Below are positions 1 through 30,332 of a DNA stretch of 64,000 bases, piece by piece. The stretch's first letter is position 1. Every line of letters starts with the position of its first letter. The translations under genes were made by a program, and so were the position numbers. Under the pieces are notes generated by a model that made no database searches, had not been told where the DNA came from, and was given only the letters and a program-made list of their open reading frames with translations. Source of the DNA: a virus; the IMG/VR virus record IMGVR_UViG_3300022226_000003, positions 1 to 64,000 of that record; one strand, 5' to 3'.

Positions 1-66
1 ATATCTGGGAGGTCAGCTCTATTTTTTTTTTTTTGTTTTAATCAAATAACACAATCAGGAGAAATC

Positions 67-6834: not shown

Positions 6835-6845
6835 GAGGAAATTTA

Positions 6846-7613: not shown

Positions 7614-7615
7614 CA

Positions 7616-8357: not shown

Positions 8358-8367
8358 GGATATTGTA

Positions 8368-9788: not shown

Positions 9789-9925
9789 TGTTTCCTGAAG
9801 CCTTTTGTAAATTTCTCAGAACATTACCTCAAGATCGAATTTTTTGGAAGATTGTAATATCGCTCGTTGCCGGTATTATTCTTATGATTCTCTCAATAAT
9901 AGTTGAACTACAGGGCGTTAAATGA
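9788..9925 (+). CDS. 45-aa membrane peptide (not in ORF track)
   Basis: TAATG coupling. MFPEAFCKFLRTLPQDRIFWKIVISLVAGIILMILSIIVELQGVK. Confidence 0.5.
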   Translation: MFPEAFCKFLRTLPQDRIFWKIVISLVAGIILMILSIIVELQGVK

Positions 9926-9946
9926 AAATGAGAAAGGTATTCTGAG

Positions 9947-11941: not shown

Positions 11942-11942
11942 A

Positions 11943-14348
11943 ATGCCAACATATTTTGTTGTTGAATATGATAATGAAGCATCTGGTCCATTTGTAGCGG
12001 AAGGCGCTGATCTCACATGGGATGCCGCCGCTAGCTCTGGAACCATTATCACAGTAATAGATCGAGGAACTACGGGTAAGCTATATTGTGCATTATTGAC
12101 CGGGACAATTCCCAATGATAATGATGCAATGACGCAAGGAACTACCACTGCTGATGCATTTAAAGATGGTCAAGCAATTTTATATCCTGCTTACTTTAGA
12201 GAAGATCTTGCAGTACCTTCCACTGGTATTACCTCATGGACAGGCCCAGCTTTAGGCACTACCCACTCTTTCTTTTTTAGTGGACAAACAGTCAATGTTG
12301 TGGCCGGTGAAATCTTAACATTCTCAGGCGGTCAAACCTGTGAAGTAATTACAGTGGAAAGTGATGCAGGAGCTACCGGTGAACTTTCGGTTAGATTTAT
12401 CTCTAACCTTGATGCGGGATTACCTGTAGATGGCGATACTTTCACAGGTGATATTGCTGGTGATGGTACCGTGGACGGTGTTGTACATGACAGGGCGTAT
12501 TCGCCTCTCCATATCCACCGTTTATTAGCTGACTTAAACGACGATGATGATATTGCGGGAAATGATGATCTTTCTCGTTTGGACCCAACACCGTCAAGTA
12601 AAGATACGGCGGAGATCGTTAATCTTTTATCTAATTTAGTTATCAATGACACCATTGCACAACATATGTATGGTGGCTCTATATCCCAGTTAGGCGGTAA
12701 TACGCTATATTCTGGTCTAGATGTGCAAGTAACATCACCCAATACTGATACCCAACCAGTAATTATTCAAGATGATGCTATCATTACTGACTACTGGAAG
12801 AATGCATTCATGCCCGATTCCATTGCCGGTAAAGTTCGTATCTTGATTAAAACTCGCGAAGACGGTGTTGATATTGACGGTAAGCGTGTTCGAGGCGCTC
12901 TACTTGAGAATAATTATAGCTACTTCTTCGGTGGTACCACTCTGGGAACAGCTACCACGGCACTTGCATTATTCGCAAGTCCTGACGGTAACAACCAGAC
13001 TGCATTAGCTACCTTGGCCGGTGCACCTTACAATACCGTAACTCAAACTGAAGGTCTGCAATTAATTGACTTCAATAACGGTAATGGTGCTACTCAGTAC
13101 GGCTACGAATATGGTTATGGAACTGCAACCAGTTTACAAGCCTATGAACGGTCTAAATACATTCAAGCCAGAGGTACAGCTGAAACATTATTTGGCAGGA
13201 ATGCGCAATTGTTCATAGGTTTTAATATGAACTTTGCCTATGATGCTGAAAGTGCTAATTTAACCCAGTCTGAAGTTATGTACTGGGGTATGACCGCAAC
13301 TTACACAGGGCAAGTTACGAGCTTTACTGTGGGTGAAGTCATCACCTTCAGTGGCGGCGGTAGAGGTCGTCTTCTGTATCAAAATGATGCAGGCGCAACA
13401 GGTACCTTGGTCTTAGCAATGGAACCCGGAATTACCCCGGCTGGTGCTGAAACCATGACAGGCGTATCTTCTGGAGGTGACGGTACTGTCGGTGTAGTGA
13501 CTGGTACAGCTTCCACACCTGCAGGTAGCTTCCTGGCAATGGCCATCGATGACGCCGGAACTACGGGCTTTCTGTATGGACAATTGCTAACCGGCCTCAC
13601 ACCCACAAATAACCAAACACTTTATGGTGGAACTTCAAACTCTACCGTGGATGTAAATGGCGCAGTATCCGTTCGTACGATCAACAACCAATACATGGGT
13701 GTTTATACTGGAACAAACTTCCAGACTAACTTCGGTATTGCAATTGATCCGTTGAATGCTATCCTGGGAGATCTGAACAGGAACTTAGCTGATACTCAAC
13801 AAGGTGTTCCGGACAACCAACAAGGTGTTGTCGGCAACTTACAAGAGGGTGATGTCGTTACTGTATATCCTTGGGATGGTTCTACTCTTGATGCAAATGG
13901 AGACAGAGCACCTTTTTATGCAGAGACCACTATTACGGCCACAGTTACGGGTGGTGTTTCAACCACAATAGCAGCGGCTGCAATTCCCGATAATACTCCT
14001 TCAGCTGGTTTCTTGAGACTTGAAAGAGATTCTGATGGTAATTTCGATTTAATTGAATATGTTTCTTATTCAGGCTTAACTTATACTCTCGGTGGAAGTA
14101 CTCCAACTGTACCCAACACAGCCACTTCAGGTAATAACCTGATGAGGGCGTTTATTGATGCAGTGGTTGCGGTGGCAGGACCTACCCAGCTATCCTACAC
14201 AGCTGTAAAGGGTGCTGGTAATACGAATGTAGCAATCAAGGTCAGGAATGGTGGAACTCTCAACGGTCCCATTAAACCTAACCCGATCAACGCAACATTC
14301 GGTGCGACCGGCTTTAACGTAAACGCGACTAGAATCAGTGATGCCTAA
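11943..14348 (+). CDS. Virion structural protein
   Basis: ATG 11943 with RBS GGAG. G/T-rich, with internally repeated GE.(L/I)TFSGG....DAGATG.L modules. Confidence 0.6.
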   Translation: MPTYFVVEYDNEASGPFVAEGADLTWDAAASSGTIITVIDRGTTGKLYCALLTGTIPNDNDAMTQGTTTADAFKDGQAILYPAYFREDLAVPSTGITSWTGPALGTTHSFFFSGQTVNVVAGEILTFSGGQTCEVITVESDAGATGELSVRFISNLDAGLPVDGDTFTGDIAGDGTVDGVVHDRAYSPLHIHRLLADLNDDDDIAGNDDLSRLDPTPSSKDTAEIVNLLSNLVINDTIAQHMYGGSISQLGGNTLYSGLDVQVTSPNTDTQPVIIQDDAIITDYWKNAFMPDSIAGKVRILIKTREDGVDIDGKRVRGALLENNYSYFFGGTTLGTATTALALFASPDGNNQTALATLAGAPYNTVTQTEGLQLIDFNNGNGATQYGYEYGYGTATSLQAYERSKYIQARGTAETLFGRNAQLFIGFNMNFAYDAESANLTQSEVMYWGMTATYTGQVTSFTVGEVITFSGGGRGRLLYQNDAGATGTLVLAMEPGITPAGAETMTGVSSGGDGTVGVVTGTASTPAGSFLAMAIDDAGTTGFLYGQLLTGLTPTNNQTLYGGTSNSTVDVNGAVSVRTINNQYMGVYTGTNFQTNFGIAIDPLNAILGDLNRNLADTQQGVPDNQQGVVGNLQEGDVVTVYPWDGSTLDANGDRAPFYAETTITATVTGGVSTTIAAAAIPDNTPSAGFLRLERDSDGNFDLIEYVSYSGLTYTLGGSTPTVPNTATSGNNLMRAFIDAVVAVAGPTQLSYTAVKGAGNTNVAIKVRNGGTLNGPIKPNPINATFGATGFNVNATRISDA

Positions 14349-14350
14349 TA

Positions 14351-15625
14351 ATGGCCACACAGATAAATCGTGTAACCGGGGTTATATTTGTTCCTAGAGC
14401 AGATATGACTCTTGTTCAATCTAATCCTACTGAGATACGAGAGTTAGATCTTAATCAGTGGAGATTGATATTACGTGATTTAGATGACGATGTTGATGGT
14501 CGTTTATGGCCGGACACTCATTCACATAATGAAGATGTTATTGTGGGTGGTGTTAGCTTGGCGGACGTATTGATAATTTCTGATTATTATACTGTTACTT
14601 TTGAGGATGGCCAATATGCAGTAAATTTGAGGGGCCTCAATTCAAATGTAGGTGACAGGGTAAATGTCAATCAGGTATCAGTACGTTCAGCTAATTCCGC
14701 AGGATTGGTGAATTCCAGAGCAATAGAGTCCATTGAATACGACAGAAGAGTGACTTTGGATCAGAACAATGTGACAGGTAATTCTAGGCCAGGTTCGGTG
14801 GCACCCACAGGGACATTGAGACAGCCCTCGGATAATGTTGGAGACACCTTGATAATTGCGGCATTTAACGGTTTCGACACTATTCACTTAATTGGTGATG
14901 TACTGTTTACTACAGGTGATACCATAAATGACTTAACGATACACGGACAAAATCCTACAAGAAGTCTTGTTACCATCGATGCTGCAGCTAATTGTCTGAA
15001 TTGTGAATTTGAGAATTCGGCTTTAACTGGTGTTCTTGACGGCGGTTCCATAATCAAAGATTGCGTGATAATCGGGTTAAATTACATAAATGGTACTGTT
15101 AAAAACTGTCGATTAGATCCCACTTTCAATCATGTATTGGGCGGAACTTCAGCGGATTATGCTTTCTTTAACAATTGCACAAGTGGGCAACCGGGTCCGA
15201 CAACACCTGTTATAGATTGTGGCGGAGATGGTCCAAATTTATTTATGAGTGGATATTCAGGTGGATTAAAGCTAATAAATAAGACCGGTACAGCAGCATT
15301 TACGATAGGTCTCGGTGAAGGTTCCATCATCATAGATCTTGACACTGTCACTAATGGAACAATCATCATACGTGGTGATGGTCACGTAACAGATCAATTA
15401 GGCAATCATCTTGATAGTGGTACTTATGGTACTTTAACTTTGATAAATCAAACAGTAGATGGTGCAGAGATACATGAGAAAGTGTCTGAGATGTGGTCAA
15501 GATCTGATTTGAATCCAGACACTCCAAATACATATGCAAATGATGCATCTAGTATTTCAAATGATAAATTTACTATAACTCGTACCGATAATGGGAATGG
15601 TACTTTCACAACACAGAGGTCTTAA
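14351..15625 (+). CDS. Virion structural protein with probable beta-helix
   Basis: Repeated NC/DC spaced motifs (NCLNCEF, IKDCVI, VKNCRL, FNNCTS). Confidence 0.5.
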   Translation: MATQINRVTGVIFVPRADMTLVQSNPTEIRELDLNQWRLILRDLDDDVDGRLWPDTHSHNEDVIVGGVSLADVLIISDYYTVTFEDGQYAVNLRGLNSNVGDRVNVNQVSVRSANSAGLVNSRAIESIEYDRRVTLDQNNVTGNSRPGSVAPTGTLRQPSDNVGDTLIIAAFNGFDTIHLIGDVLFTTGDTINDLTIHGQNPTRSLVTIDAAANCLNCEFENSALTGVLDGGSIIKDCVIIGLNYINGTVKNCRLDPTFNHVLGGTSADYAFFNNCTSGQPGPTTPVIDCGGDGPNLFMSGYSGGLKLINKTGTAAFTIGLGEGSIIIDLDTVTNGTIIIRGDGHVTDQLGNHLDSGTYGTLTLINQTVDGAEIHEKVSEMWSRSDLNPDTPNTYANDASSISNDKFTITRTDNGNGTFTTQRS

Positions 15626-15628
15626 ATA

Positions 15629-16114
15629 ATGGCAAATGAAGTTTTTAACATCGCAAAAGGCGAAGTTAATGGGTACGTAAATAGGGTAATCAATAATGAT
15701 CCCACCAATGCAGGTCTTTATGTTATTTTATTACAGACCGCTGAGGCTGACGCCACTTTACGTGATCACGATACACTGGCAGCAATTTTAGCAGGTGCTA
15801 ATACAGAAGCAACTTTTACTAACTACACTCGTGCGGCTGTTACTATTACTGATGTTACAAATACACCAACTGTTACCGTAGATGATACTAATGATCGACG
15901 TGAAGCTGACTTCCCTGACATCACAATTTCAAGTGCAGGTGGAGCTACCAATAATACTCTCGCTAAAGGTATTGTTTGTTATGTGCCTGATGTAATAACA
16001 CCCAGTGCTGATAATTTGATTATTCCTTTAACTCATCACGATTTCGTAGTTACCACTAATGGTAATGATCTTATTATTCAGGTAGATCCTCTCGGATTCC
16101 ATCGTGCTGCTTAG
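15629..16114 (+). CDS. Small beta-rich virion protein (probable paralog of 6846..7307)
   Basis: EATFTNYTR, DFPDITIS and HHDFVVTTNGNDL segments, similar in layout to 6846..7307. Confidence 0.6.
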   Translation: MANEVFNIAKGEVNGYVNRVINNDPTNAGLYVILLQTAEADATLRDHDTLAAILAGANTEATFTNYTRAAVTITDVTNTPTVTVDDTNDRREADFPDITISSAGGATNNTLAKGIVCYVPDVITPSADNLIIPLTHHDFVVTTNGNDLIIQVDPLGFHRAA

Positions 16115-16126
16115 GAGGTATAAATA

Positions 16127-16528
16127 ATGGTAGACTATGTGGCTTTAAAAGCCGAACTTGACGCAGGGCATCCTGATACAGGTCTTTATAATGTAGATGA
16201 TGCTATTGCACTTTCTCAAATTAATTTAGCTAATCGTACAAGAATTAAGCCTACAGTATCAGGTGCTGAGATTGCCGATGCAACCGATACTACTGAATTC
16301 GCTGCATTAACACCCACAGATCAAAATAGATGGCTTGCAATGTGTGCTATCAATACTTTAGATACTACAGGTGGTATTGCAGGAGCATTAGAAGCAGCCC
16401 TTTTCGGTGTTGCTACTGCAACCAGAGCTAACCTAGTTGCTCTTAGAGAAGAAACTGTAAGTCGTGCAGTAGAGTTATTCGGCTCAGATCTTATTATTGG
16501 TGATATTCAAAATGCGAGGGCCTTGTAA
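16127..16528 (+). CDS. Hypothetical virion protein
   Basis: RBS AGGAGG. C-terminal SRAVELFG....GDI..AR. Confidence 0.6.
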   Translation: MVDYVALKAELDAGHPDTGLYNVDDAIALSQINLANRTRIKPTVSGAEIADATDTTEFAALTPTDQNRWLAMCAINTLDTTGGIAGALEAALFGVATATRANLVALREETVSRAVELFGSDLIIGDIQNARAL

Positions 16529-16992
16529 TGGTTGATGCAGTACTCAGTGGGTATAAAGAAGAAGCCCAGTCCGTTGTTTTCAGCGGCACACAGCAAATTA
16601 ATTCCTTATTGGACAATGAATGGACAGATCCTTCAGATGTAATTGATAACAGTAGTTTAAAATATTTATTTGCAGATATTGAATTAGTTTTAGGTAGTGC
16701 TGCTTTTACAGGCACTGATTCTTCAATTGAATTGTATTTAATACCTTCAGTTGACGGCACAAACTATCCAGACTGGGTTGGTAATGTCACTACCGACGAA
16801 CAGGAAAACAATAAACACTTTATTGGCTCTATGGTTACGAGTGGATCGACTGCTGCGCAAAGAATGACGTTACGTGCTGTTGCGATGCCTCCTGGTAAAT
16901 TTAAGTTTGGTATTCGTAGTCGTGCTAATGTGACACTTGCCGCTTCAGGTAATACACTTAAATTTCGTCGTTGGAATTATTCGAGTCAGTAA
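16528..16992 (+). CDS. Hypothetical virion protein
   Basis: Coupled ORF. LYLIPSVDGTNYPD and PPGKFK..I.......LAASGN motifs. Precedes the LamG genes. Confidence 0.6.
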   Translation: MVDAVLSGYKEEAQSVVFSGTQQINSLLDNEWTDPSDVIDNSSLKYLFADIELVLGSAAFTGTDSSIELYLIPSVDGTNYPDWVGNVTTDEQENNKHFIGSMVTSGSTAAQRMTLRAVAMPPGKFKFGIRSRANVTLAASGNTLKFRRWNYSSQ

Positions 16993-17783
16993 AAGTGTCA
17001 AAAAACAAAACACTTAATTTCCCAATACTGAGCTCGCCCGAGTTACAAATTCCCGGACGAAAACCAGTTGGTCTAGTGGAGATTGATTGGCAAAACTCGA
17101 TAACTAATGATCTAAAATTTTGCGTCCCTTTTATCAATGGTTGGCATGAGTTAGTAAATAATCAACAGGCTGATACTTCGACGTTGGATGCCAATAATTT
17201 TATGAGCAGCCATCTAGGCGAAAAGGCTTTTCGATTTGGCGGTGATCATAATGAATATATCGAATATCCTAATGATCCCGGGTTCGCCTTCAATCAAACG
17301 AAGGGCTATACAATACTAGCAAGAATTTCCTTAGACTCTATAGCAGACTTTCGGTCGATTTGTTGTTATAAGCTGACTGATGATAGTGAGCCTTTTCTGA
17401 TGTTTTACTCTAATGATGCTTCGTATTCTTCGCTTTCTTGGGGAAATCTAACTATCTCTGAAAAAGGTATAAATACCGGGGATATCAATATAACACCCGG
17501 AGATGGTCAATTTCACACTATTATTATTACAATGGATGGCGTGAATCCTGTTAATATATCTTCTTGGAATTGTTGGATTGATGGTGTTCCTCTAACTATT
17601 AATACTCAAGGTAATTTTGGGTCGGTCGGAAATACTACTAAATTAGGCGCTTGGGATAATACTTTGCATGAGTGGCCCGGATTTGTATCTTTACAAGCTA
17701 GATGGGATAGGTCTTTAAATGACGTCGAAGTAATAAGCTTATTTAAAGACCCATATCAAATTTTCAGGCCGAGGATTCGCTAA
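16971..17783 (+). CDS. LamG/concanavalin A-like lectin-fold protein
   Basis: YTILARI, FHTIIIT.DG, WIDGV and WDRSLNDVEVISLF motifs. Start uncertain (GTG 16995 possible). Confidence 0.7.
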   Translation: MELFESVKVSKNKTLNFPILSSPELQIPGRKPVGLVEIDWQNSITNDLKFCVPFINGWHELVNNQQADTSTLDANNFMSSHLGEKAFRFGGDHNEYIEYPNDPGFAFNQTKGYTILARISLDSIADFRSICCYKLTDDSEPFLMFYSNDASYSSLSWGNLTISEKGINTGDINITPGDGQFHTIIITMDGVNPVNISSWNCWIDGVPLTINTQGNFGSVGNTTKLGAWDNTLHEWPGFVSLQARWDRSLNDVEVISLFKDPYQIFRPRIR

Positions 17784-20179
17784 TGTTGATCACGATACCC
17801 GAAGACGAAACGAAGCCGCATGTCATACCTGAACTGCCGTTTAAAACTTATGACTCGATGTTGTTCAATGCGAGCCTCGCAACATATGCTACGCAAAATA
17901 TTAATATACTCGTTAATCCTGCTGGTGCTTATACATTCGCTTGTTGGTTTCATATGACTACTGCCTCGAATCTCGAAGAATATATGCTTATGAATATAAG
18001 TGATGAAAATTTGAGTGATTTTATTAATATGCGAGTCAGTGATTTAACGCCGGGCCCACCAGCTTTTGAGTTCAATGTAAGAGCCCAGGGCACGGCAACT
18101 CAATCGGCCAATGCAAGTCCAGTCGTGCCATTTCAACAAGGGTGGCACCACGGTGTCGCAGTACAGTATGCAACAAATGACAGACACGCAATTTTAGATG
18201 GTCATATTGAGGGAATCAATACCGTTGACTTAACTCCGGTGGGCCTAGTGCATGTTAATGTCGGTGCACACGTATACAACAACCGTAATAATCGCATCGA
18301 TCATCATGACGGGTATATATGCTTGCCAGCAATATGGAATGTCGGTTTAACAAAGGGCGAAATCAAGCAACTGTCAGAGGGCGTGCATCCGACAAAAATC
18401 AGGCCGGGCAACTTGGTCGCTTTATATAATAGTCGCGGAATAGATTTGATAAGCGGTAGAAATTTAACATTCTTTAACGGCGTTCAATCTAGTCAATTTT
18501 CACCGCCTTTTAAAAACGATTCCTACATATTCCCGTCAATAGATGATGAAAAATCTGTTATGCCGACTAAAACGCCCGAATTATATATTCACGAGCGTAA
18601 GCCAATTATCGGGCCGGTTGAAATAAATTTCACTAATTACCCAAAAATTAAATCGGCGTATTTATTCAATAGTCAGTCTGGTGCTAAGGATATTCTGGAC
18701 CCGTCGACAGAATCAACACCTCAAGGCACTGCAATCGTTGGGCCGTTTGGTTTAAAAACCTTTAACAATGCCAACGACTCGATGTATATCGGTACGAATA
18801 AATTAAATAGTATTTGTAACGGCGCGCAAGTCGTTATTTTTCACATCGGCTTTCGGGCAAGCTTTGACAGAGCTTCGAATGTAATTTTAGACGCTTATAT
18901 TAACGGAGCTACGACGAACAGTTTTTATATATATTTAACAGCTGCGGGCAACCTTACGGTTGGCGGCCGTAGCCAAGCTGGCGAAGTATTTGAAGACGGG
19001 GTATCTACTGGCGAAGAGTTTAAATCAGGCGAGGATCATTTTGTAGAAATTATTTACGATTACGTCGGCGACAAAATCGTCGCCTATAAAGATGATCGCA
19101 CAGTACTAAATCAGACAGTTACGTGGGATAGTGATACTCTTGTGGCAGGCGTCTCTACCGTTCAGGATGGTTTAGGCGGCACGGCCCACAGAAGCCGAAA
19201 CTCGGCAATGACGATATATTATTTTGCTGTCGAGACATACGATGAAAGACCAATCACGCTTAATAAAAGAAGCTCGACAAGAAACCCTTATGGGCTTCTA
19301 AAACAAAGCCGCCCTGACGTTTTAATAGGTGAAACGCAACCAGCTAATGGCTTTAATATTCCTGATGCAAAAGTTGAAATGCCTTCTTTATTTATTCCGG
19401 GTCGTAAACCAATAGGTGAAATGGAAATCGATTGGCAAAACCCGATAACATATAATTTAGAGCTATATCTACCTTTTTCAAATGCGCAGCCTCTTGCTGA
19501 TTTGACTGGTAAAAATGGTGATCGTGAGTTTGTCACTCCTTATGGTTCTCCTTCTAGGCATGTAGTAAGTGGTAGAGAATGTTGGGGTTTTAATCTAGCG
19601 GGTGGCGCAACGCAACATATATCAGTTGGTGAAGGGGCTTGCCGTCCCGGTTCTGATAATTTTAGCTATGGTTGTTGGGTTTGGATGGATGGCGGTATAT
19701 CAACTGAATCTATAAATGTATTTATGTCTGCATCAGCGCCAATTGATGACGGCGATAGGTACGGATTTTGGGGAAATGATTCAAACACAACCTTTACCGC
19801 CCAATATCATGAGGGTGGCCCCGGTAATGTAGTTGAGCTTGTCAACTCAGGCGAAACTCCAGCGGATTACGAAAACAAATGGGTTTTCCTTCTCCACGTA
19901 CTAGATCGCAATGCCGCAACGCCTACAATGTATTTATACCGCGATGGTATTTTGGTTGGCTCATCAACTGATCCGAAAATTAGTAACACGGCATTTGAAG
20001 ATCCGGGTTTTGATTTAAAAATCGCCGCTTATGGAGACGCTATTCCAACGGTCGAGAGTGATAATCGCTTTGAATTACGCGGTTATATTTCTGATGCTTA
20101 TTGGTGGCGTCGAGCTTTAACTCAATCAGAAGTTATAGAACTTTCTAAAAATCCTTATCAATTCTTGGTACCTAAATAA
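17783..20179 (+). CDS. Protein with three LamG-like domains (putative receptor-binding)
   Basis: TFACWF/WHHGVAV/IWNVGLTKGEI; HFVEIIYD; FSYGCWV/WVFLLHV/LYRDG/WRRALTQSEV. Confidence 0.7.
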   Translation: MLITIPEDETKPHVIPELPFKTYDSMLFNASLATYATQNINILVNPAGAYTFACWFHMTTASNLEEYMLMNISDENLSDFINMRVSDLTPGPPAFEFNVRAQGTATQSANASPVVPFQQGWHHGVAVQYATNDRHAILDGHIEGINTVDLTPVGLVHVNVGAHVYNNRNNRIDHHDGYICLPAIWNVGLTKGEIKQLSEGVHPTKIRPGNLVALYNSRGIDLISGRNLTFFNGVQSSQFSPPFKNDSYIFPSIDDEKSVMPTKTPELYIHERKPIIGPVEINFTNYPKIKSAYLFNSQSGAKDILDPSTESTPQGTAIVGPFGLKTFNNANDSMYIGTNKLNSICNGAQVVIFHIGFRASFDRASNVILDAYINGATTNSFYIYLTAAGNLTVGGRSQAGEVFEDGVSTGEEFKSGEDHFVEIIYDYVGDKIVAYKDDRTVLNQTVTWDSDTLVAGVSTVQDGLGGTAHRSRNSAMTIYYFAVETYDERPITLNKRSSTRNPYGLLKQSRPDVLIGETQPANGFNIPDAKVEMPSLFIPGRKPIGEMEIDWQNPITYNLELYLPFSNAQPLADLTGKNGDREFVTPYGSPSRHVVSGRECWGFNLAGGATQHISVGEGACRPGSDNFSYGCWVWMDGGISTESINVFMSASAPIDDGDRYGFWGNDSNTTFTAQYHEGGPGNVVELVNSGETPADYENKWVFLLHVLDRNAATPTMYLYRDGILVGSSTDPKISNTAFEDPGFDLKIAAYGDAIPTVESDNRFELRGYISDAYWWRRALTQSEVIELSKNPYQFLVPK

Positions 20180-21471
20180 TGGCTAGAGCGTCCAGAATAT
20201 TTGTAGGTAAAGTTCCTGCGGTAACAGTACAAGAAATACTGACACCCGTAAGTGCTACTTTAGGACAAGCGGTAGAAACTGATACTGCATTTGAGTTAGC
20301 TCCTATAAGTGATATCATAGGTACCTTAGGACAAGCGGTAGAAACTGACACTTCTAATCAGTTGTATAGTCCTGAAACTATAGGGCAGGCAGTAGAAACT
20401 GATACCGCATTCGAATTGGCCCCTATAAGTGATGTAATAGGAACTTTGGGGCAAGCCATTGAAACAGATACTTCTTTTGATTTCACCCCGGTTACCAATG
20501 TTACAGGTACTCTAGGACAGGCTGTAGAAACTGATACTGCGCAAGAAGTATCAGGTATTACGAACGTCACAGGATTGCTCTCACAGGCTCAAGAGGTGGG
20601 CACTGCGGGAGAACTTTACGTTCCTAATACCATCATAAGGGCCACGGAAACGGATCAGGCTGGCGTACTCTCGGGCACTCTGGACGTCACTGGGATGCTG
20701 AATCAGGCCGTCGAAACCGATACCGCTAATGAATTATACAGTCCTGAAACAATAGCGCAAGCGATAGAAGCCGATACTGCTAACACTATTACTCCTATAA
20801 CAAACGTTACAGGAACATTAGGACAGGCCGCCGAGACCGATACTGCACAGGCATTTACAGGATTAGTTGTTGTAGCTGGTTTATTAGGACAGGCTACTGA
20901 AACTGATACCGCGCAGACTATTACAGCTATTACGCCTGTAGTAGGTACATTATCCCAAGTTATTGAAGTTGATACTGCAGGTAATATAACACCTAGGACA
21001 GCTACAACAATTGTTCTTGGGCAGGCTGTTGAAACTGATACTGCACAGGTATTAAGTGGTATAATAGCAGTCTCAGGTGTACTTATTCAAGCTACTGAGA
21101 CCAATACTGCTAACAATATAATACCTATAAATGCCACAGTAGGTACATTAGGGCAAGCTACTGAGACTGATACTGCTCAAATATTTACTCCTGCAACATT
21201 AACAAGTAATGCTACTGTTGATATTATAGGTGGTGAAAACTTATCTAATTTGACATATATTGTATTTGACTCTTATGATCTTTCAACTGCAAATGTTATA
21301 AAACAAGGTGTTGGAGAAAGCACTGATGTAAATGGTAACTTAGTTGTGGATTTGGGTGGCACAGGAGTGGCTAATAATGATCCTATAACGATAGTAGTAA
21401 CTAATTATACAACTACACCTACTGTAAATAGCAGAGCGGCTGTTTGTTATACTAATGCTGTGGTAGCCTAA
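20179..21471 (+). CDS. Repeat-rich virion protein (15 x LGQAxETDTA)
   Basis: 15 tandem 18/22-aa repeats followed by a ~85-aa C-terminal domain. Confidence 0.75.
   Translation: MARASRIFVGKVPAVTVQEILTPVSATLGQAVETDTAFELAPISDIIGTLGQAVETDTSNQLYSPETIGQAVETDTAFELAPISDVIGTLGQAIETDTSFDFTPVTNVTGTLGQAVETDTAQEVSGITNVTGLLSQAQEVGTAGELYVPNTIIRATETDQAGVLSGTLDVTGMLNQAVETDTANELYSPETIAQAIEADTANTITPITNVTGTLGQAAETDTAQAFTGLVVVAGLLGQATETDTAQTITAITPVVGTLSQVIEVDTAGNITPRTATTIVLGQAVETDTAQVLSGIIAVSGVLIQATETNTANNIIPINATVGTLGQATETDTAQIFTPATLTSNATVDIIGGENLSNLTYIVFDSYDLSTANVIKQGVGESTDVNGNLVVDLGGTGVANNDPITIVVTNYTTTPTVNSRAAVCYTNAVVA
20257..21210 (+). repeat. Coding tandem repeat, 66/54-bp units
   Basis: Repeated GGNCARGCNGTAGAAACTGA(T/C)AC core. 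Twelve units of 22 aa and three of 18 aa. Confidence 0.8.
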
Positions 21472-22100: not shown

Positions 22101-23669
22101 ATGGCTGTTGCGAACGCTGCTGATAGTACAAAGAAAGTTGGCGATCCTAATGCAGAATATGAATCCATGCGGGATATTTGGCAAAAATGCAGAGCTATTT
22201 GTAGCGGCGAAAGATTCGCAAAAGCCTTGGATACATATTTAGATATACATGGATACAGTAATCTTTTAATCCCATTTTCACCCTCAATGACTGATGCACA
22301 ATACAAATTCTATAAAGCAGAAGCAGAACTACCCGGTATTACTGCACAGTTTGCGAGGATGTTAGTGGGAGGTCTTCTCAGAAAAGAGCCCATGTTGGAA
22401 CTCCCGGATGGTATGAATGAAGATATTCAAAATTGGATGATGAATAATTTCACTCAAGATAATTCTACGATAACTTCATTCTTAGACGATATTCTTTGGG
22501 AAGAGATACAAACAGGCAGAGCGTGGATTTATGTGGATTATCCAGTAATACCTGATGTAGAAAATGCTACCCAGGAAGAAATCTTCGATTTAGCGCCATT
22601 TCCTGTTATGTGGAAAGCTGAAAATATTATAAATTGGCGGGTTAGTCCTGACGAGGTAGGGAATGCCATTTTAAGACAGGTTATCATAAAGGGTTCTGTC
22701 GCTAGGTATACTGATAATGAATTTCATCCTGAATTTATTGAAACTGTGTATGTGCATGAGTTAGATGATACGGGACATTACCAGATAAGAGTTTTTGAAA
22801 AGCAATCCATCGAGGCGAAAGTACCTGTTGTGGCCGGACAAAAATTTGTGGATAATCGAAAAACCACAGATAATTTTGTTTTGGTGAAGACAATTCAAGA
22901 TATTAAAGCTGCTGGTGAAAGATTGAAATTGATTCCCGCTTGGCCTTTAAATGGAACTATCTCAGTCTCTGAACCAATATTGTCGCCAATTGTAGATAAA
23001 GAAGTTAGCCTATATAATAAGGTTAGCCGCAGGAACCATCTGTTATATGGTGCCTCTACATATACACCTATTATCAAATCAGATATGTTAGATGAAGATT
23101 TTGACAAGATAGTGGATAGTGGATTAGGCACATGGATAAAACTTGGAAGAGATGATGATGCTTCTGTTTTAGAAACACCCACAGCTGCATTAAAAGATAT
23201 GGACAGGGCCATCGCTGCCGCAATTGAGGAAATGGCCAAATTAGGTATCAGAATGTTGTCTCCTGAAACAGCACAATCTGGTGTTGCTTTGGAACTGAGA
23301 AATGCCGCGCAGAATGCTCAATTAGGTTCTTTAAATAATAAAGTTAGTGTGACTATCTCGAAAGTCATAGCTTTTATGATTTTTTGGAAGACAGGCGATG
23401 AAATTAAAGATTCTGATATTGGTTTTCAACTATCTGCGGATTTCAACCCAATACCTCTTGGTGCGGATTGGTTAAGACTCGCGACAGAATGGTATGAAAA
23501 TGGCTTAATACCGCGAAGCATTTGGTTACAAATACTTAAACAGAATGATATAATGCCTCCGGATTATGATGATGACGACGGTTTGAAAGAAATAAATAAT
23601 GATGAAATATTATTAAAGAAAGAGAAACAAAATGAAGAGTTCTTTGATGATGTGAATACCGAGGCTTAA
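22101..23669 (+). CDS. Portal protein (DUF4055-like)
   Basis: 522 aa. GRAWIYVDYP, WKAENIINW and ETAQSGVALELR motifs. Directly upstream of the MuF gene. Confidence 0.85.
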   Translation: MAVANAADSTKKVGDPNAEYESMRDIWQKCRAICSGERFAKALDTYLDIHGYSNLLIPFSPSMTDAQYKFYKAEAELPGITAQFARMLVGGLLRKEPMLELPDGMNEDIQNWMMNNFTQDNSTITSFLDDILWEEIQTGRAWIYVDYPVIPDVENATQEEIFDLAPFPVMWKAENIINWRVSPDEVGNAILRQVIIKGSVARYTDNEFHPEFIETVYVHELDDTGHYQIRVFEKQSIEAKVPVVAGQKFVDNRKTTDNFVLVKTIQDIKAAGERLKLIPAWPLNGTISVSEPILSPIVDKEVSLYNKVSRRNHLLYGASTYTPIIKSDMLDEDFDKIVDSGLGTWIKLGRDDDASVLETPTAALKDMDRAIAAAIEEMAKLGIRMLSPETAQSGVALELRNAAQNAQLGSLNNKVSVTISKVIAFMIFWKTGDEIKDSDIGFQLSADFNPIPLGADWLRLATEWYENGLIPRSIWLQILKQNDIMPPDYDDDDGLKEINNDEILLKKEKQNEEFFDDVNTEA

Positions 23670-23677
23670 GTAAAATA

Positions 23678-26600
23678 ATGGTAGACAATGTAAATACACA
23701 AATATATGACGGTCGTCTTAATAGGGCCGCATTATTGAGATTGTATGAAAATAATACCATCAGTAAAGTAGATATTGTGATGGATGGACATGTATTCAGA
23801 CTTGATAAGCTGATTAAGAATTCAAAGATGACTTCGACTAGCTTCAAGAGTTTTGAAATAAATTTGAATAGGGAACTGAAACGAACTTATAGAGAAGTTT
23901 TCTCGGTTTCTAAAAGATCACTTTTGGACTTAGCTAGCGACCAAGTCTCTTATACGTATCAGAATTTAGAAGCAGGTGTTAGTAAAGTTTGGCGCACAAA
24001 AAGACCTCAAAGAAGAATTGCTGAGGAAATTGTCTTGAAACAACCCTTGCATTCCAATAAGACTCTGGAACAGGGCTGGGTAGGTATAAGCGCGGGTGAG
24101 AGAAAACGATTATCGTCAGTTATTCGTAAAGGAATTGCTGAAGGAGATACTCCGGAAGTTATTGCCAGGAATGTACGTAAAGGTAACATTCATAAGATAA
24201 CCAGGAACCAATCTAGAGCTCTTGTAACTACTTCCATAACAAGTGTTGCAGCACAAGCTGATCATGAAGTCTATGCTGCAAACGGAGACGCCCTGAAAGG
24301 TTGGCAGTATGTGGCCGTCTTGGACTCCAGGACCACGCCTGTGTGCTCGCATCGTGATGGCCATATTTACCCCATAGGGGACACGAAGCATCTGCCTCCG
24401 GCCCACTACCGCTGCAGGTCGACAACGACACCTGTAGTAAAAAGTTGGGATGATTTAAGTAAATTAGAAGGTGTAAATCAAGTAAGAAAAAGAAATCTTA
24501 AAAAATTGAACCCTGCGCAAGTGGCATTTTACGATGGATTGACACCTTTAAAAGAATCATATAATTCATGGTTATTAAGACAGCCCACAAATATCCAAGT
24601 GAAACATCTAGGTAGTTACCAGAAAGTAGATCTATTCAATAACGGTAAGTTATCTGTAGATAAATTCACCGCACCTTCGGGTGCTGAATTGGGAATACGG
24701 CAATTGAGACAATTAACTGATTCCGAATATACAGCTCCCAGTGACACTAAAAGATTTGCACTTGCTAAAGAAAGATTAGATGCAATGCACTTGGGCGCAA
24801 GTCGCCCTGAAGATTTTATTGATGATATCAAATTGACCAATACCCTGAGGGATTATTATGTCTTACAATCTGCTGAATTAGACGGGACATTATCTTTAAC
24901 AAATTATAGAGGTAATTTAATAGGTACTAAGAGACGAACTAAAAATTTGGTCTTAAACAAATTACCACGAGAAGATCAGCTATTGTTCAATCCTATAACT
25001 GGTAGATACGAAGATTCTAGATTATTCCAACCTGCCCCGGCTGTCTTGGAAAATAATTTAAAACTTGTTAATGAAAGTCTTGTATTGAAACAGGCTGATA
25101 AGGATTATATCATTAAATTTATAGCCAGTCTAGAAAGCCGAATGAGTGTTAATGAGAGAGCTGTTGTAGCAGATAACTTAAGAATACTATTTACAAGATA
25201 CCGCAAAAACCCTGAAGTATGGACTAACTTTAAAGCAGTTTCTCAAGCTCAAATCAAATTTGATGTAATGAATGTTTCAGACTCTATCGAAACACAATTG
25301 AGAAAAGACGCCAATTTGCTTAAGAAATTGAAACAAGACAATTACATAGACCCTGTATTAGGTGCTGTGCAATTAGATGATTTATCGAATAATTTTATAA
25401 ATAATATTTCTAAAAGAAATCGATGGGAAGATAAAGTAGCACCTAAGTTAGCTAGACAACTAAGAGATATCTTTGACAGAAATATCCCAATAAGATTGCA
25501 GAGAAGAATTCCCGATGATAAATTACAACAATTTTATTTAAGATTTGCACATAGACTTAGCTTAGCAGATAGTCCTGATGTTGATAATTTAGCTGTCTCT
25601 TTAGGGCGCGATCTATATAATATGGCTGAACTCAATGGTACTAAGCAACAATGGCATACTCTGGGTAAAAAGATAATTGAATCTAACAATAAGTTTTTTA
25701 AATTAGAAACATTCGGTGTCCAAAAACGCAGGATGAAAAGTAGATTAAGTGGTCAATATTTTGGACCTTACTATGATACTTTTTCGTATAATATAAGAAT
25801 CACTGATCCCAGGATTCAGGAGTACTCAAGACTTAATAGAAGTATTGATGTAGGTCTCCGTATAGGTGTCACTGATCCAAAGAATAGATTACTTTTTAGA
25901 GAAGGCTATAAAACTTATTTTTATAAAGATAAATTAGGTGGCTATGTAGATACCCGAATTCCAATCACTTCTTCATCTGCATTCAGAGATTTTCCTGAAG
26001 AATTTATTGATAAAGATATGGTGAGTGCTTTAAATTGGGCCGCTAAGTCTGAATTTAAGGTTGATGAAGATTACTATGATTTTGTAAATAAATTATTAAA
26101 TTTTGCTGATGACCGTGGTCGTGCTCAATACTTCGATGACTTGAATCAGTATCGACGTTACATAATTTCTCGTGGAGATTCCTATGAAAGATTCAAATCC
26201 ATGCAATGGTTTAGGGATCGTAATATTGCTTTCTCTAATCACCCTTTCATTGATTCTAGAGCACGGATCTATGATCGTGGATTTATTAGCCCTCAGTCTG
26301 GAGAAACTTTTAGGCCTTTCCTCAATACTTCGTATGAGAGAGCTTTAGGCGAAATTGGTTTTAAAAATTTTAATGACCAAATAGGGTCTTTCTTAGGAGG
26401 ATTGGATGACTTCTTTGAGGGTCGTTTCAACTCGCTAAGTATCACAGGTAGGCAAAAGATTGCAAATAAGTGGCGTCCAGAGTTAGTTAAAATTGGCAAT
26501 CACATGATTCGTGGAAAGCCTAATGATATTAGAGCAATATTGCAATCAGATATTGTGGCTAAGATTGAAGGTGAAGAACTAGGGAAGTTTCTAAGATTTG

Positions 26601-28297
26601 CAATAGAGACGGCTAAGATTGATAACTTTATGAAAGGTGATTATAAAAATCTTTCTAAACTTAATAGTTATAAAACAGCATTAGCGCTAGAGCAAGATGC
26701 CTCTTCATCAGGTGCGCAAATAATTGCTTTAACAACTAGAAACAAACAATTAGCTGAATTGAGCAATGTTATTCCAACTAACCAGAAGAAAAGATTATAC
26801 GATGAGATAGCAGCAGCTACCTTCAATGATTCTAGATTTAGACAGTTAAATTTAAGGTTGGGAATAAATGAGAAAGATTTACGAAAAGCTGCAAAAGCAC
26901 AAAATATGGTTACATTCTATGGTGCTGGCGATCGCACAGGTATTCTGAATGTTGAACGAAAACTGGCTTCAGCTTTGGAAAGACAGCCTGGAACATTGGT
27001 GGTCAAGGCTTCCCAGAGAGATGAAATCTTGGGTGAAATTTCCGCCAGAATAGCTAGGTTTGAAAAGTTCGATCCAGAAACTGCAGCTGAGCTTGCAGTA
27101 TTAAGGACAAATGTTAGAGATATCTTTAATAAGGGTCTAAATCCTGGCCAAGATATCATGGATGATCTATATTTCTTGTCACCACAAACTAAAGATTTCT
27201 TAGAAAAGATGTCTTTGAGTTATGATAAAGTTATCACACCGAACGATTTTAAAGAAATTGCTTCAATTATGAGTGAATACCTAGCAGAACAGACTCCTGT
27301 ACTTAAAACATTCACGAAGTTTTTAGGTCGTCTTGCGGAAGATTTCCTTGAAAACGCCAGACCATCTAAGAGTGATTTTGATTGGAAAAGTATTTTTAAA
27401 GTAAAGCTATTAGGTACACGTAAGGATGGATATAAATTACCTGACAGAATAGGTGAAATATTGGGAGTAAATACTTCAAAATCTGTGAGTGAATCTTTTC
27501 TAAGTAAATTTGGTTTCTGGAAGCCCAATGGGTTTCTTGATGAATTAATATACGGCACCAGAGATCCTTTAAATAGACGGATCGGTGCCAAGTACTTTAA
27601 AATTGATATTGCAAAAATTAAGAAAATTTATGAATTAGAAATTTTCAGAGCAAATAAATTACCCAAACGTTGGACAAATGTACCTTGGGTTAATTTTGAT
27701 AAAAAGACACTAGAACAAAACTTTACATCAACAATAGAAACACGGTTATTTTACAGAGATAAAGATGGAAATCCTATTACAAATATTATTCAAATAGATA
27801 ATAAGAGTGAAGCTACATGGTGGGAACAATTCATAAATAATTCTGGCAATATAAATGACATTGCAGATACAGCTAAGGCTAGAACAGCTTATGCTGTAAA
27901 TGGAACTCATTCTAATGACGCAGTACTCGTCAAGAGATTTCATATCTGGGGTAGAGAAAATAATGTAAATACAGCGACTGTTCATGATGCTTTCTTCACT
28001 AATATTGGTGAGATGTTGGAAGCTAAACAAGCATTACGGAATATCTACGCTAAGGCAGCCGAATCGAATGTAATCAAACAAACATTAGATGAAATGCGCG
28101 CTAGGGGTTTTCCGAAGGAATTATATGATAAGTATTTAAATGAAGCAATTGAGATAGGGCTGATACCGATACCCGGTAAATCTAGGATTGGTGGAAGGCT
28201 TCTAACTGATACGGATATATTAACACGCGAGGATATTTTAAGAGATATAGATGAGGTTTTTGAAGACGACCTTAGCTGGTATGGTGTTGGCGGGTAG
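23678..28297 (+). CDS. MuF/SPP1 gp7 head-morphogenesis protein fused to a T7-type single-subunit RNA polymerase (putative virion RNAP)
   Basis: aa ~211-252: YVAVLDSRTTPVC..RDG....PPAHYRCRS (MuF). aa 859 DSRARIY; motif A DASSSGAQ (D1007); motif B RKAAKAQNMVTFYG (R1069); NGTHSNDA (H1411); motif C VHDAF (D1437). Confidence 0.9.
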   Translation: MVDNVNTQIYDGRLNRAALLRLYENNTISKVDIVMDGHVFRLDKLIKNSKMTSTSFKSFEINLNRELKRTYREVFSVSKRSLLDLASDQVSYTYQNLEAGVSKVWRTKRPQRRIAEEIVLKQPLHSNKTLEQGWVGISAGERKRLSSVIRKGIAEGDTPEVIARNVRKGNIHKITRNQSRALVTTSITSVAAQADHEVYAANGDALKGWQYVAVLDSRTTPVCSHRDGHIYPIGDTKHLPPAHYRCRSTTTPVVKSWDDLSKLEGVNQVRKRNLKKLNPAQVAFYDGLTPLKESYNSWLLRQPTNIQVKHLGSYQKVDLFNNGKLSVDKFTAPSGAELGIRQLRQLTDSEYTAPSDTKRFALAKERLDAMHLGASRPEDFIDDIKLTNTLRDYYVLQSAELDGTLSLTNYRGNLIGTKRRTKNLVLNKLPREDQLLFNPITGRYEDSRLFQPAPAVLENNLKLVNESLVLKQADKDYIIKFIASLESRMSVNERAVVADNLRILFTRYRKNPEVWTNFKAVSQAQIKFDVMNVSDSIETQLRKDANLLKKLKQDNYIDPVLGAVQLDDLSNNFINNISKRNRWEDKVAPKLARQLRDIFDRNIPIRLQRRIPDDKLQQFYLRFAHRLSLADSPDVDNLAVSLGRDLYNMAELNGTKQQWHTLGKKIIESNNKFFKLETFGVQKRRMKSRLSGQYFGPYYDTFSYNIRITDPRIQEYSRLNRSIDVGLRIGVTDPKNRLLFREGYKTYFYKDKLGGYVDTRIPITSSSAFRDFPEEFIDKDMVSALNWAAKSEFKVDEDYYDFVNKLLNFADDRGRAQYFDDLNQYRRYIISRGDSYERFKSMQWFRDRNIAFSNHPFIDSRARIYDRGFISPQSGETFRPFLNTSYERALGEIGFKNFNDQIGSFLGGLDDFFEGRFNSLSITGRQKIANKWRPELVKIGNHMIRGKPNDIRAILQSDIVAKIEGEELGKFLRFAIETAKIDNFMKGDYKNLSKLNSYKTALALEQDASSSGAQIIALTTRNKQLAELSNVIPTNQKKRLYDEIAAATFNDSRFRQLNLRLGINEKDLRKAAKAQNMVTFYGAGDRTGILNVERKLASALERQPGTLVVKASQRDEILGEISARIARFEKFDPETAAELAVLRTNVRDIFNKGLNPGQDIMDDLYFLSPQTKDFLEKMSLSYDKVITPNDFKEIASIMSEYLAEQTPVLKTFTKFLGRLAEDFLENARPSKSDFDWKSIFKVKLLGTRKDGYKLPDRIGEILGVNTSKSVSESFLSKFGFWKPNGFLDELIYGTRDPLNRRIGAKYFKIDIAKIKKIYELEIFRANKLPKRWTNVPWVNFDKKTLEQNFTSTIETRLFYRDKDGNPITNIIQIDNKSEATWWEQFINNSGNINDIADTAKARTAYAVNGTHSNDAVLVKRFHIWGRENNVNTATVHDAFFTNIGEMLEAKQALRNIYAKAAESNVIKQTLDEMRARGFPKELYDKYLNEAIEIGLIPIPGKSRIGGRLLTDTDILTREDILRDIDEVFEDDLSWYGVGG

Positions 28298-28299: not shown

Positions 28300-28318
28300 A
28301 CCCCGTTAAATTAACCCA
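28300..28318 (+). promoter_or_regulatory. Motif A copy 2, putative late promoter for the scaffold/capsid operon
   Basis: Identical to 329-347. Begins 3 nt after the stop of the MuF-RNAP gene. Confidence 0.65.
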
Positions 28319-29129: not shown

Positions 29130-30332
29130 ATGCCATTACGTATTAATGTTGCAGGTGCTACTGAATTTGCGCTACAAGAAGCAATTGGTGCTTATTCAGA
29201 TGAAGCCTACACCAATGCCAAAAAACTTTCAAGTACAGGTATTGTAGGCGGAAACCCACAAATCGATACCAGCTCAGAGACCTATATTGGTCAAATGCGT
29301 TGGTTTAAACCCTTAAACCCTACTATCAATACAGCTTCTCTGACAGTAGCTACTGATGGTGCTTTCACCACTTACGGTTCGGAATACCTGAACTACGTCA
29401 AAACTGCTCGTACCCACGGTGCGCAGAAAGTTAACCTGCAAACCCTGGTCACTCAGCAAGATGGTCTTGCTAAGATCAGCCGTGATTTCGGTGAAACCAA
29501 GGCTCAAGATGAGCACAATGCTATCCTTGCTGTTCTGAAAGGTGTTGCTATTGCTGAACTTCTGCATGGTACCGGTGATGCCGGTGGTGGTGCTGGTCTT
29601 GGTGGACAAGGCTGGGATAATGACCCTACTGATCCGCTGTATGGCTTCTACGTGGATCTTGGCGCAAATCCGATTGTCACAGCCCCGGCTGCTGCTAATA
29701 TTGGCGCTCAACGTGCTGCAGGCTTCCTTGATGCTATCGGTATGGCTTACAAAGATTACGAGCCGGAATTCTTCTACCTGATTACTAGCCCTGAAGTTAT
29801 GGCTTCTCTGCGTTCTGCTAATCTTGTAGATGAAACCAAAGTTGTTGACGGTAATATTGTTTTTGACACTATTTTCCAAGGTAAATTCCGTTTAATTCAA
29901 ACTCGTGCAACTCAAAGTTTGACTGCTGCAGAAATTGACAAATTTGATGCCACGAACGTATCTAATCTGGGTGTTGATTTAGTTGGTCAGAAGACCACTT
30001 ATCTTGTACAACCCGGTGCATTGGCGATGGAAGCTCTGCAGATTGCAGAAGATGTTGAATTTGATCGTGATGCTTCTGCTTATGCTGGTGGCGGTACCAC
30101 TGAAATTTGGTATCGTTGGGGCTACGTCGTTCATCCGGGCGGTTACAACTGGACTGGTTCGCAAGATGCTTTCCCGAGTGATGCTCAGTATAAAGAAGTC
30201 ACGAATGATGGCGGTGCGACTACCGCAACTGTTGTGGCAATGCCCGCAGCAACTACGGGTTACACTGGTGTTTGGACAAGGAAGGCTAATTCTGTACTCT
30301 CACTAGGAATTTTACCTGTATTCCACGCTTAA
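29130..30332 (+). CDS. Major capsid protein
   Basis: 400 aa after the scaffold, strong RBS, biased codon usage. DRDASAYAGGGTTEIWYRWGYVVHPGGYNW and W.RK C-terminal pattern. Confidence 0.85.
   Translation: MPLRINVAGATEFALQEAIGAYSDEAYTNAKKLSSTGIVGGNPQIDTSSETYIGQMRWFKPLNPTINTASLTVATDGAFTTYGSEYLNYVKTARTHGAQKVNLQTLVTQQDGLAKISRDFGETKAQDEHNAILAVLKGVAIAELLHGTGDAGGGAGLGGQGWDNDPTDPLYGFYVDLGANPIVTAPAAANIGAQRAAGFLDAIGMAYKDYEPEFFYLITSPEVMASLRSANLVDETKVVDGNIVFDTIFQGKFRLIQTRATQSLTAAEIDKFDATNVSNLGVDLVGQKTTYLVQPGALAMEALQIAEDVEFDRDASAYAGGGTTEIWYRWGYVVHPGGYNWTGSQDAFPSDAQYKEVTNDGGATTATVVAMPAATTGYTGVWTRKANSVLSLGILPVFHA

Follow-up and report, generated by a model that had tools for sequence, protein, structure and literature searches.

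In this report we analysed the first 64 kb (64,000 nucleotides (nt), hereafter the window) of IMG/VR virus record IMGVR_UViG_3300022226_000003, which is 77,534 bp long and rated 100% complete, and focused on an unusual gene of its head module in which an N-terminal MuF head-morphogenesis domain is fused to a T7-type single-subunit RNA polymerase (RNAP). This fusion is an intact gene that recurs in many phages, and its product is best explained, by analogy, as a bifunctional virion protein. We propose, with a probability of about 0.6, that the polymerase enters the capsid attached to MuF and serves early transcription independently of the host, in an N4-type relay.

The first finding is that the fusion gene is continuous and lies in a canonical head module (Table 1). 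Its open reading frame (ORF), exactly nt 23678-28297, gave a 100% self-match with no stops inside, in agreement with the first-pass annotation, a reading made from the sequence alone, which had described one gene of 1539 amino acids (aa) without internal stop. Both halves are recognised by the profile searches that this annotation had proposed, above the respective Pfam cut-offs: Phage_Mu_F (PF04233) at aa 146-250 (E 3e-12, 47.7 bits against a cut-off of 29.6) and RNA_pol (PF00940; E 7e-12, 45.3 bits against 22). In addition, PHROG 241 "head morphogenesis" covers aa 49-351 (2.5e-66), phrog_115, a longer minor-head-protein family, spans aa 49-559, and phrog_414 "RNA polymerase" matches aa 857-1092 (1.6e-19). 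No domain other than MuF and RNAP was found with Pfam and PHROGs. A PDB sequence match to 1uly, an archaeal winged helix-turn-helix protein (E 1.7e-5), falls at aa 678-806, within the N-terminal domain of the RNAP. The order of the head module—portal, fusion gene, scaffold, major head protein—is supported by PHROG matches of the neighbouring genes, so that the MuF slot claimed at first pass holds. The portal ORF lies directly 5' of the fusion gene in 35/35 relatives with enough upstream DNA, an order also found in DSS3_VP1 and EBPR siphovirus 1. Since the fusion gene is the sole PF04233 match of the complete genome, whatever MuF does in head assembly falls to the fusion. No small immunity ORF follows it; a promoter-like element comes next, and then the scaffold gene.

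The two-module layout proposed at first pass stands, but its borders, placed at aa 260 and 770, do not: the MuF homology runs to aa ~350-560 and the polymerase starts at aa ~566. We folded the protein as two overlapping pieces (aa 1-565 and aa 352-1539) with family alignments, and all structural statements in this report refer to these predicted models. The AlphaFold2 (AF2) model of aa 1-565 has a predicted local distance difference test (pLDDT) score of 86, and disordered linkers are seen in the models at aa 351-358 and aa 559-568. From its homology, the MuF/SPP1-gp7 part is aa 1-~350, arguably up to ~560. A Foldseek search of the aa 1-565 fold against the PDB gave no match at E<=0.001, which is not evidence of a new fold. 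The Cys/His signature reported earlier at aa ~211-252 is well conserved, with C223, P240, P241, H243, C246, R247 and S248 invariant in an alignment of 25 sequences. A complex prediction of the portal with MuF aa 1-360 returned no answer (score 0.00) and counts neither way.

The second finding is that the C-terminal half is predicted to be a complete polymerase. The AF2 model of aa 352-1539 (mean pLDDT 81.6, predicted template modelling score (pTM) 0.76) matches mitochondrial and T7 RNAPs in Foldseek (E 3e-18 to 1e-15). In VIA-align it scores Z 28.3 against T7 RNAP, with a root-mean-square deviation of 3.3 Å over 528 residues, Z 27 against human POLRMT and Z 20 against the N4 mini-virion RNAP (mini-vRNAP). 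Because the alignment covers T7 residues 38-883 (model residues 218-1187), the module at aa ~566-1539 is modelled as a whole T7-type enzyme that includes the N-terminal domain, beyond the palm-fingers core. The earlier claim of an intact T7-type RNAP is therefore borne out by motifs, Pfam and predicted fold, and the catalytic positions then named (D1007, R1069-x3-K-x7-YG, H1411 and D1437) are all exact, H1411 being the counterpart of T7 H784 in the HSQD motif, outside motif C. Among 24-25 full-length relatives that diverge down to 19-25% identity, D1007, K1070, K1073, Y1081, G1082, D1414 and D1437 are invariant. Judged by identity in close, middle and far clades, the polymerase core (66/35/24%) is conserved at least as well as MuF (57/30/31%). 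In the model, a β-hairpin at aa 1352-1374 would sit at the place of the T7 specificity loop (T745-R746-L747-N748). Judging from its conserved catalytic residues, the fused polymerase is apparently active. It is ~20% identical to T7 RNAP, in short stretches only, and the hidden Markov model (HMM) of the fused-clade family scores T7 RNAP at 81.4 bits, the free-standing RNAPs of this phage and of DSS3_VP1 at 61-70 bits and N4 mini-vRNAP at 6.7 bits. Because this family HMM favours T7 over N4 mini-vRNAP, the fused clade is, on sequence, an old branch of the T7-like stock and not an N4 derivative.

A further observation comes from EBPR siphovirus 1 (JF412302; L001:12176-13120), whose fusion gene is split inside motif B, between …AKAQNMV and TFYGAG…. 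The DNA between the two parts resembles a group I intron (RF00028; E 1.7e-8; 40.5 bits, below the Rfam gathering score of 50) and carries an HNH endonuclease ORF, gp48, while the two exons are named "head protein" (gp47) and "hypothetical" (gp49) in GenBank. Homing introns usually settle at conserved sites in essential genes, and we count the position of this one inside motif B in favour of the scheme proposed below. Other insertions were also seen. There is a hot spot ~16-20 residues before motif A, at aa ~986-991 (nt ~26633-26650), where in-frame inserts of ~60-225 aa are present in close and distant clades alike (relatives P0013, P0029, P0037, P0047, P0062, P0066, P0095, P0117, P0123, P0140, P0153 and P0158). 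The insert in P0123 has weak matches to NTP_transf_2 nucleotidyltransferase (7e-5) and GNAT acetyltransferase (2.9e-4). Further inserts lie at aa ~1107 in P0084 (~230 aa) and in the MuF motif region of P0145 (~334 aa); the latter weakly matches LAGLIDADG and is possibly an intein.

The third finding is that the fusion is widespread and, for this polymerase, obligate. A word-indexed search of 5.8 billion proteins recovered 383 relatives, and ~110 of the best 120 of these (90%-identity clusters) are full-length (1518-1775 aa) with both Pfam domains, the rest of the best 120 being shorter and truncated. The full-length relatives come from several sources, on contigs up to 65-90 kb. The survey for the same fusion suggested at first pass thus proved productive, with at least 533 IMG/VR loci, each on its own contig, and three GenBank phages, a recurrence that chance cannot explain. 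The GenBank phages are EBPR siphovirus 1, with 57% identity, and two roseophages of the Naomviridae, DSS3_VP1 and DSS3_PM1 (30%). The latter two are cultured phages of Ruegeria pomeroyi DSS-3 with finished genomes, in which the gene is labelled "head morphogenesis" or "minor head protein-like". When aa 352-1539 served as a phmmer query on 1.84 billion representatives, no more than 169 proteins reached E<=0.001, and by this measure the fused polymerase forms a small and very diverged RNAP clade. MuF is at the N terminus in 33/33 phmmer relatives of at least 1000 aa (23-66% identity), and since every long relative has MuF, the fusion is ancient and obligate for this clade. Candidate unfused RNAP-only proteins that could be placed on contigs were rejected: contig ends truncate P0014, P0053 and P0074, and the ORF at the locus of P0106 is continuous over 1547 aa. 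Among 185,579 prokaryote species genomes the family is represented by two loci, both within a single metagenome-assembled genome, one of them on a 74,179-bp contig equal in size to an IMG/VR phage contig rated 100% complete. Because the family is essentially absent from these bacterial genomes, phages with this fusion are virulent and not prophages.

The fused enzyme is not the only polymerase of this phage. A free-standing T7-like RNAP, 26% identical to T7 RNAP (E 3e-53), is encoded in the replication module, next to genes for DNA polymerase, exonuclease, primase-helicase and ribonucleotide reductase. A pair of this kind is also present in DSS3_VP1, whose free-standing enzyme, named "RNA polymerase" in GenBank, is 35% identical to the one in the window. 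This two-polymerase layout is N4-like and, because a free-standing RNAP is present both here and in DSS3_VP1, the fused enzyme is not needed as a general phage polymerase.

Another relevant feature is a 17-bp element, CCCCGTTAAATTAACCC, found four times in the genome (at 330, 28301, 48138 with one mismatch, and 69397), always intergenic and on the coding strand, where it heads each module; every gene of the genome is on the + strand. The element (CCCGTT-NNN-TTAACCC) is held by 56/80 IMG/VR relatives whose proteins are 57-77% identical, in most of them ~3-15 nt past the stop codon; a few have it several hundred nt further on. In four complete relatives, 4-5 copies per genome were counted, all of them forward, the reverse strand and the controls having none, so that such elements are sparse: 4-5 on the same strand per 67-77 kb genome. 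In DSS3_VP1, ATAGG(G/T)(T/G)(G/A)CGTTAAAGA followed by G-runs is present at least 14 times, always on the same strand, and has a CGTTAAA core in common with the element of the window. The copies form two subclasses differing at about -10 to -12, the positions that set T7 versus T3 specificity, and the element (ATAGGTGACGTTAAAGA-GGGG) resembles the SP6 promoter. The Naomviridae paper has no mention of it (PMC8323127). These elements look like T7-type promoters for long polycistronic units, and the 17-bp element is probably a T7-type promoter for one of the two phage RNAPs. To look for a second promoter class, we compared the 21 intergenic regions by repeated 12-mers and by blastn, which gave only the 17-bp element, and the number of sigma-70-like sites at 46-64 kb (71, against 57 +/- 9 in shuffles) is not significant. 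Two 38-nt AT-rich imperfect palindromes (512-549 and 563-600) were also noted between the first copy and the first gene of its module. The second contains ACTATAGGGAG (589-599), identical to the T7 promoter consensus core from -7 to +4, which we rejected as a T7-like promoter: it is not conserved in the four complete relatives, one of which has a near match in a similar place.

How might these features fit together? Previous work treats MuF/gp7 proteins as head components of phages with portal-terminase packaging, and MuF-fused enzymes as packaged and injected cargo (PMC5512222, PMC9503650, PMC5576092). In the scheme that we propose, the MuF/gp7 module (aa 1-~560) would dock on the portal during procapsid assembly, as SPP1 gp7 does, so that a few copies of the attached polymerase (aa ~566-1539) would end up within the capsid. 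At infection, the fusion protein would exit through the portal and tail together with the DNA, and the ejected polymerase would transcribe phage DNA without the host polymerase, its templates including the module that encodes the free-standing T7-like polymerase. Once made, the free-standing enzyme would be responsible for the bulk of middle and late transcription, starting at the 4-5 co-oriented 17-bp promoters of each genome. The ejected enzyme may also help to draw in the one-directional genome. Overall, this would be a relay from virion RNAP to non-virion RNAP of the N4 or P23-45 type. Portal binding, packaging, ejection, catalysis and the promoter choice of each enzyme are the central functional claims, which we infer by analogy to SPP1 gp7, MuF-effector fusions and N4 gp50. 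Host-independent early transcription is favoured because the fusion is intact and obligate, the predicted fold is complete, the catalytic residues are invariant, a second RNAP is present, and the gene immediately follows the portal in the late head module, N4 gp50 being a late-gene product as well. The near absence of the family from bacterial genomes, together with the few same-strand elements, suggests a virulent phage that relies on processive phage polymerases.

Several points weigh against this scheme. Presence in virions and ejection are themselves argued by analogy, and the paper on DSS3_VP1 and DSS3_PM1 mentions neither RNAP nor MuF (PMC8323127). A single repeated element is detectable, leaving no promoter class attributable to the fused enzyme, and its SP6-like relative in DSS3_VP1 fits the free-standing T7-like enzyme at least as well. 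In a comparison of 80 loci, changes at the variable positions of the element (AAA, AGA, GAA, AGC, TTC and others) did not visibly go together with changes in the hairpin of the fused enzyme. Just past the 48138 element there is a consensus-like sigma-70 promoter, so that host RNAP could start the middle module. Finally, a 175-kDa protein must unfold to traverse a siphovirus tail, which is plausible given N4 gp50 and T7 gp16. A bolder version extends the scheme to a large, globally distributed lineage of virulent long-tailed phages, the ICTV family Naomviridae included, that needs no host RNAP because a MuF-carried T7-type polymerase, using one 17-bp promoter, both pulls in the genome and switches on the second polymerase. 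We put this forward tentatively, as a possibility that may well prove wrong.

Other roles for the fusion have to be considered. The polymerase might not be delivered at all, acting instead as a late enzyme in the producing cell, for example at proheads, or being cleaved from MuF at the linkers (351-358 and 559-568) before or instead of packaging. The grouping of the fusion gene with late genes is in keeping with this, as are the flexible linkers modelled at both domain borders, a packaging step argued by analogy, and the fact that the sole detectable promoter class heads late and early modules. However, the free-standing T7-like RNAP is already available for late genes, no prohead protease was identified by profile annotation of the head-module genes, and MuF fusions are otherwise cargo (PMC5512222, PMC9503650). 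Moreover, a cytoplasmic enzyme would not need a fusion that is kept in every clade to ~20% identity with no unfused form, and we therefore consider such a role unlikely. Quite unlikely, in our view, is that the enzyme is packaged and ejected but serves mainly as a genome-entry motor or as a primer maker for the first round of DNA replication. T7 RNAP and N4 vRNAP do pull in part of their genomes by transcription, and one-stranded genes with 4-5 co-oriented and evenly spread elements are what transcription-coupled entry requires, while primases transferred with DNA are a known theme, as in conjugation (PMC5512222). Yet the phage has its own primase-helicase, and the overlap of the contig ends (36/40) leaves the physical termini undefined. 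In any case, entry or priming is compatible with early transcription, and in T7 and N4 a single act does both.

Two further explanations would remove the polymerase activity or the fusion itself. The module could be a dead relic, a DNA-binding or space-filling internal head protein, as its low similarity to T7 RNAP (~20%, short stretches) and the clade-specific low-confidence insertion at aa 1237-1330 might suggest. This is very improbable when the catalytic residues of motifs A, B and C and of HSxD are invariant across deep divergence, the whole fold is kept at Z 28, and a homing intron targets motif B. As for an assembly or gene-calling artefact joining two neighbouring genes, the record is a metagenomic contig but nothing else was found in its favour, and the continuous ORF recurs in at least 533 independent IMG/VR contigs, in ~110/120 of the best clusters and in two cultured, finished genomes, so it can safely be set aside. 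Recurrence in IMG/VR, protein clusters and GenBank phages likewise excludes the assembly chimera that the first-pass annotation had raised. Early transcription by a virion-delivered polymerase is the reading that we favour.

The rest of the genome offers additional context. The last 40 nt of the contig (within genome 77462-77534) repeat window 1-40, with 36/40 identical and a differing T-run, and because of this overlap the assembly is circular and closes on itself. At the junction of the contig ends there is a hairpin with a 13-bp stem (ATAGAGCTGACCT ... AGGTCAGCTCTAT) followed by T11-13, a strong terminator-like structure at the end of a small-gene module. Between terminase and portal, a 17-kb run (4787-21471) contains large genes (616, 664, 805, 424, 270, 798 and 430 aa) with no PHROG match at E<=1e-5, an unusual gene content between packaging and head genes. 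The last of these ORFs, upstream of the portal (20179-21471, 430 aa), has an in-frame repeated block (GTAGAAACTGATACTGC plus flanks) with ~120-132-nt spacing, which suggests a repeat-containing, fibre- or decoration-like protein. Shine-Dalgarno-like motifs (GGAG/GAGG/AGGA) precede 58% of predicted genes at a distance of 5-20 nt, compared with a background of 10% at random positions, a sequence pattern that argues against a Bacteroidota host; despite it, one UniRef relative bears the label Flavobacterium sp. A connection with uracil-containing DNA (dU-DNA) was also considered. Naomviridae relatives have dU-DNA, and dU phages such as AR9/PBS2 encode their own RNAPs. In this genome, a search for the DSS3_VP1-type dU-DNA enzymes found no homologue of the dCTP deaminase family (PF00383), YfbR-type dTMP phosphatase (PF12917) or ThyX, and by these markers a tie between the fusion and uracil-DNA is rejected.

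Table 1. Coordinates of the fusion gene, its domains and motifs, neighbouring genes and promoter-like elements (window numbering unless stated)
Feature	Position	Strand	Remarks
MuF-RNAP fusion gene	23678-28297	+	1539 aa, ATG start, without internal stop
MuF / SPP1-gp7 minor head domain, aa 1-350	23678-24727	+	Pfam core aa 146-250 = nt 24113-24427
Helical middle region, aa 351-565	24728-25372	+	homologous to long minor head proteins (phrog_115)
T7-type single-subunit RNAP module, aa ~566-1539	25373-28294	+	predicted fold
D1007 codon, motif A (EQD), equivalent to T7 D537	26696-26698	+	invariant
Motif B, R1069-x3-K1073-x7-Y1081-G1082	26882-26923	+	group I intron point in EBPR siphovirus 1
Low-confidence insertion, aa 1237-1330, between motifs B and C	27386-27667	+	close clade only; absent from distant clades
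β-hairpin, aa 1352-1374, with T-R1356-L	27731-27799	+	model secondary structure
H1411-S-N-D1414 (T7 H784/D787) through motif C H1436-D1437 (T7 H811-D812; VHDAF)	27908-27988	+	
Portal gene	22101-23669	+	phrog_145 5.8e-61; ends 8 nt before fusion gene
Scaffold gene, 245 aa	28380-29117	+	phrog_206 9.3e-06
Major head protein gene	29130-30332	+	phrog_247 1.1e-16
Free-standing T7-like RNAP, 752 aa, non-virion candidate	50153-52411	+	phrog_414 1.2e-107; PF00940 1.4e-63
Primase-helicase	59790-61439	+	phrog_239 3.4e-140
CCCCGTTAAATTAACCC copy	330-346	+	heads terminase-to-portal-to-MuF-RNAP module
CCCCGTTAAATTAACCC copy	28301-28317	+	3 nt past fusion stop codon; heads scaffold-capsid-tail module
Third copy, one mismatch (...GTTATATTAAC...)	48138-48154	+	2 kb upstream of free-standing RNAP
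Fourth CCCCGTTAAATTAACCC copy	genome 69397-69413 (L100:5397-5413)	+	outside window
DSS3_VP1 element examples (L093-L096)	record positions 2341, 19245, 29404, 45934, 59204		
Repeated block copies inside ORF 20179-21471	20267-20540 and 21031-21048		

Few systems with virion-packaged RNAPs have been described (N4-like podoviruses, crAss-like phages, P23-45 and jumbo phages), and new transcription mechanisms and protein delivery routes came to light with each of them. The virion RNAP and the MuF cargo carrier are each a known concept, and their combination was not found described: our search, which reached few subscription journals, found no description of a MuF-RNAP fusion in the literature. RNAP is absent from the MuF partners listed in three surveys (PMC5512222, PMC5576092, PMC9503650), and one of them restricts virion RNAP modules to N4-like phages (PMC5512222). 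Neither polymerase is mentioned in the Naomviridae paper (PMC8323127) or in the paper on dU-DNA enzymology (PMC12697855). Among MuF-effector fusions (polymorphic toxins, MuF-ART, MuF-RelA/SpoT, MuF-nuclease), the architecture is similar, with an N-terminal PF04233 domain, a gene that follows the portal and a C-terminal enzyme (PMC5512222, PMC5576092, PMC9503650). The cargo here, however, is a 970-aa RNAP and not a small toxin or host-modifying enzyme, there is no downstream immunity ORF, and the phage is virulent, not temperate. This also sets it apart from the MuF polymorphic toxins of temperate phages (PMC5576092), as its C terminus is an RNAP and the family is nearly absent from the bacterial genomes searched. 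If our proposal is true, this would be the first MuF carrying a nucleic-acid polymerase, and the cargo range of MuF would grow from small toxins to a 110-kDa enzyme. The routine label "head morphogenesis protein" for these genes would also need correction.

Comparison with other phage polymerases highlights similarities and differences. Fused and T7/SP6 RNAPs (Autographiviridae) have in common a full-length fold, catalytic motifs, a specificity-loop-like hairpin and short, conserved promoter-like elements. T7 RNAP is produced early by host RNAP as a free protein and is never in the virion, whereas the clade of the fused enzyme is found exclusively joined to MuF. The Thermus siphovirus P23-45 has a virion RNAP (gp96) covalently fused to a structural protein, as presumed here, and this tape-measure-fused enzyme transcribes pre-early genes including the gene for a second, non-virion RNAP, gp64 (PMC10770324). 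The P23-45 enzymes are two-barrel, cellular-related RNAPs carried by the tape measure, whereas here a right-hand (Pol I-like) polymerase of the T7 family is joined to MuF as its carrier. The double-psi β-barrel core of two-barrel virion RNAPs such as P23-45 gp96 and crAss-like gp66 was not found, the listed structural matches being all right-hand T7-type, mitochondrial and N4 enzymes.

The closest parallel is N4, which packages a T7-type vRNAP for its early genes (PMC5512222). Like N4 gp50 (Schitoviridae), the fusion is a T7-family single-subunit RNAP encoded among late/structural genes and followed by a second T7-like polymerase, while capsid packaging and host-independent early transcription, known for N4, are presumed here. 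N4 gp50, however, is a 3500-aa protein of a podovirus, in which an injection region at the N terminus and an encapsidation region at the C terminus, the latter with a metallopeptidase-like (zincin-like) domain, flank the polymerase and MuF is lacking (PMC5512222), whereas the fusion has 1539 aa, a MuF carrier and a long-tailed phage. The fused polymerase is also nearer to T7/mitochondrial RNAPs than to N4 (Z 28 against 20; 81 against 6.7 bits), and no N4-type hairpin promoters were found in this genome. The fusion is abundant in metagenomes, with at least 533 IMG/VR contigs and hundreds of protein clusters, and the cultured members DSS3_VP1 and DSS3_PM1 make the delivery idea directly testable. 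This new and highly diverged single-subunit RNAP clade, with what would be short defined promoters, could possibly supply orthogonal transcription tools. If delivery is true, the fusion would represent a compact and independently evolved counterpart of the N4 system, and a fifth solution for a virion RNAP, built from a MuF anchor and a T7-type polymerase in siphoviruses of ordinary size.

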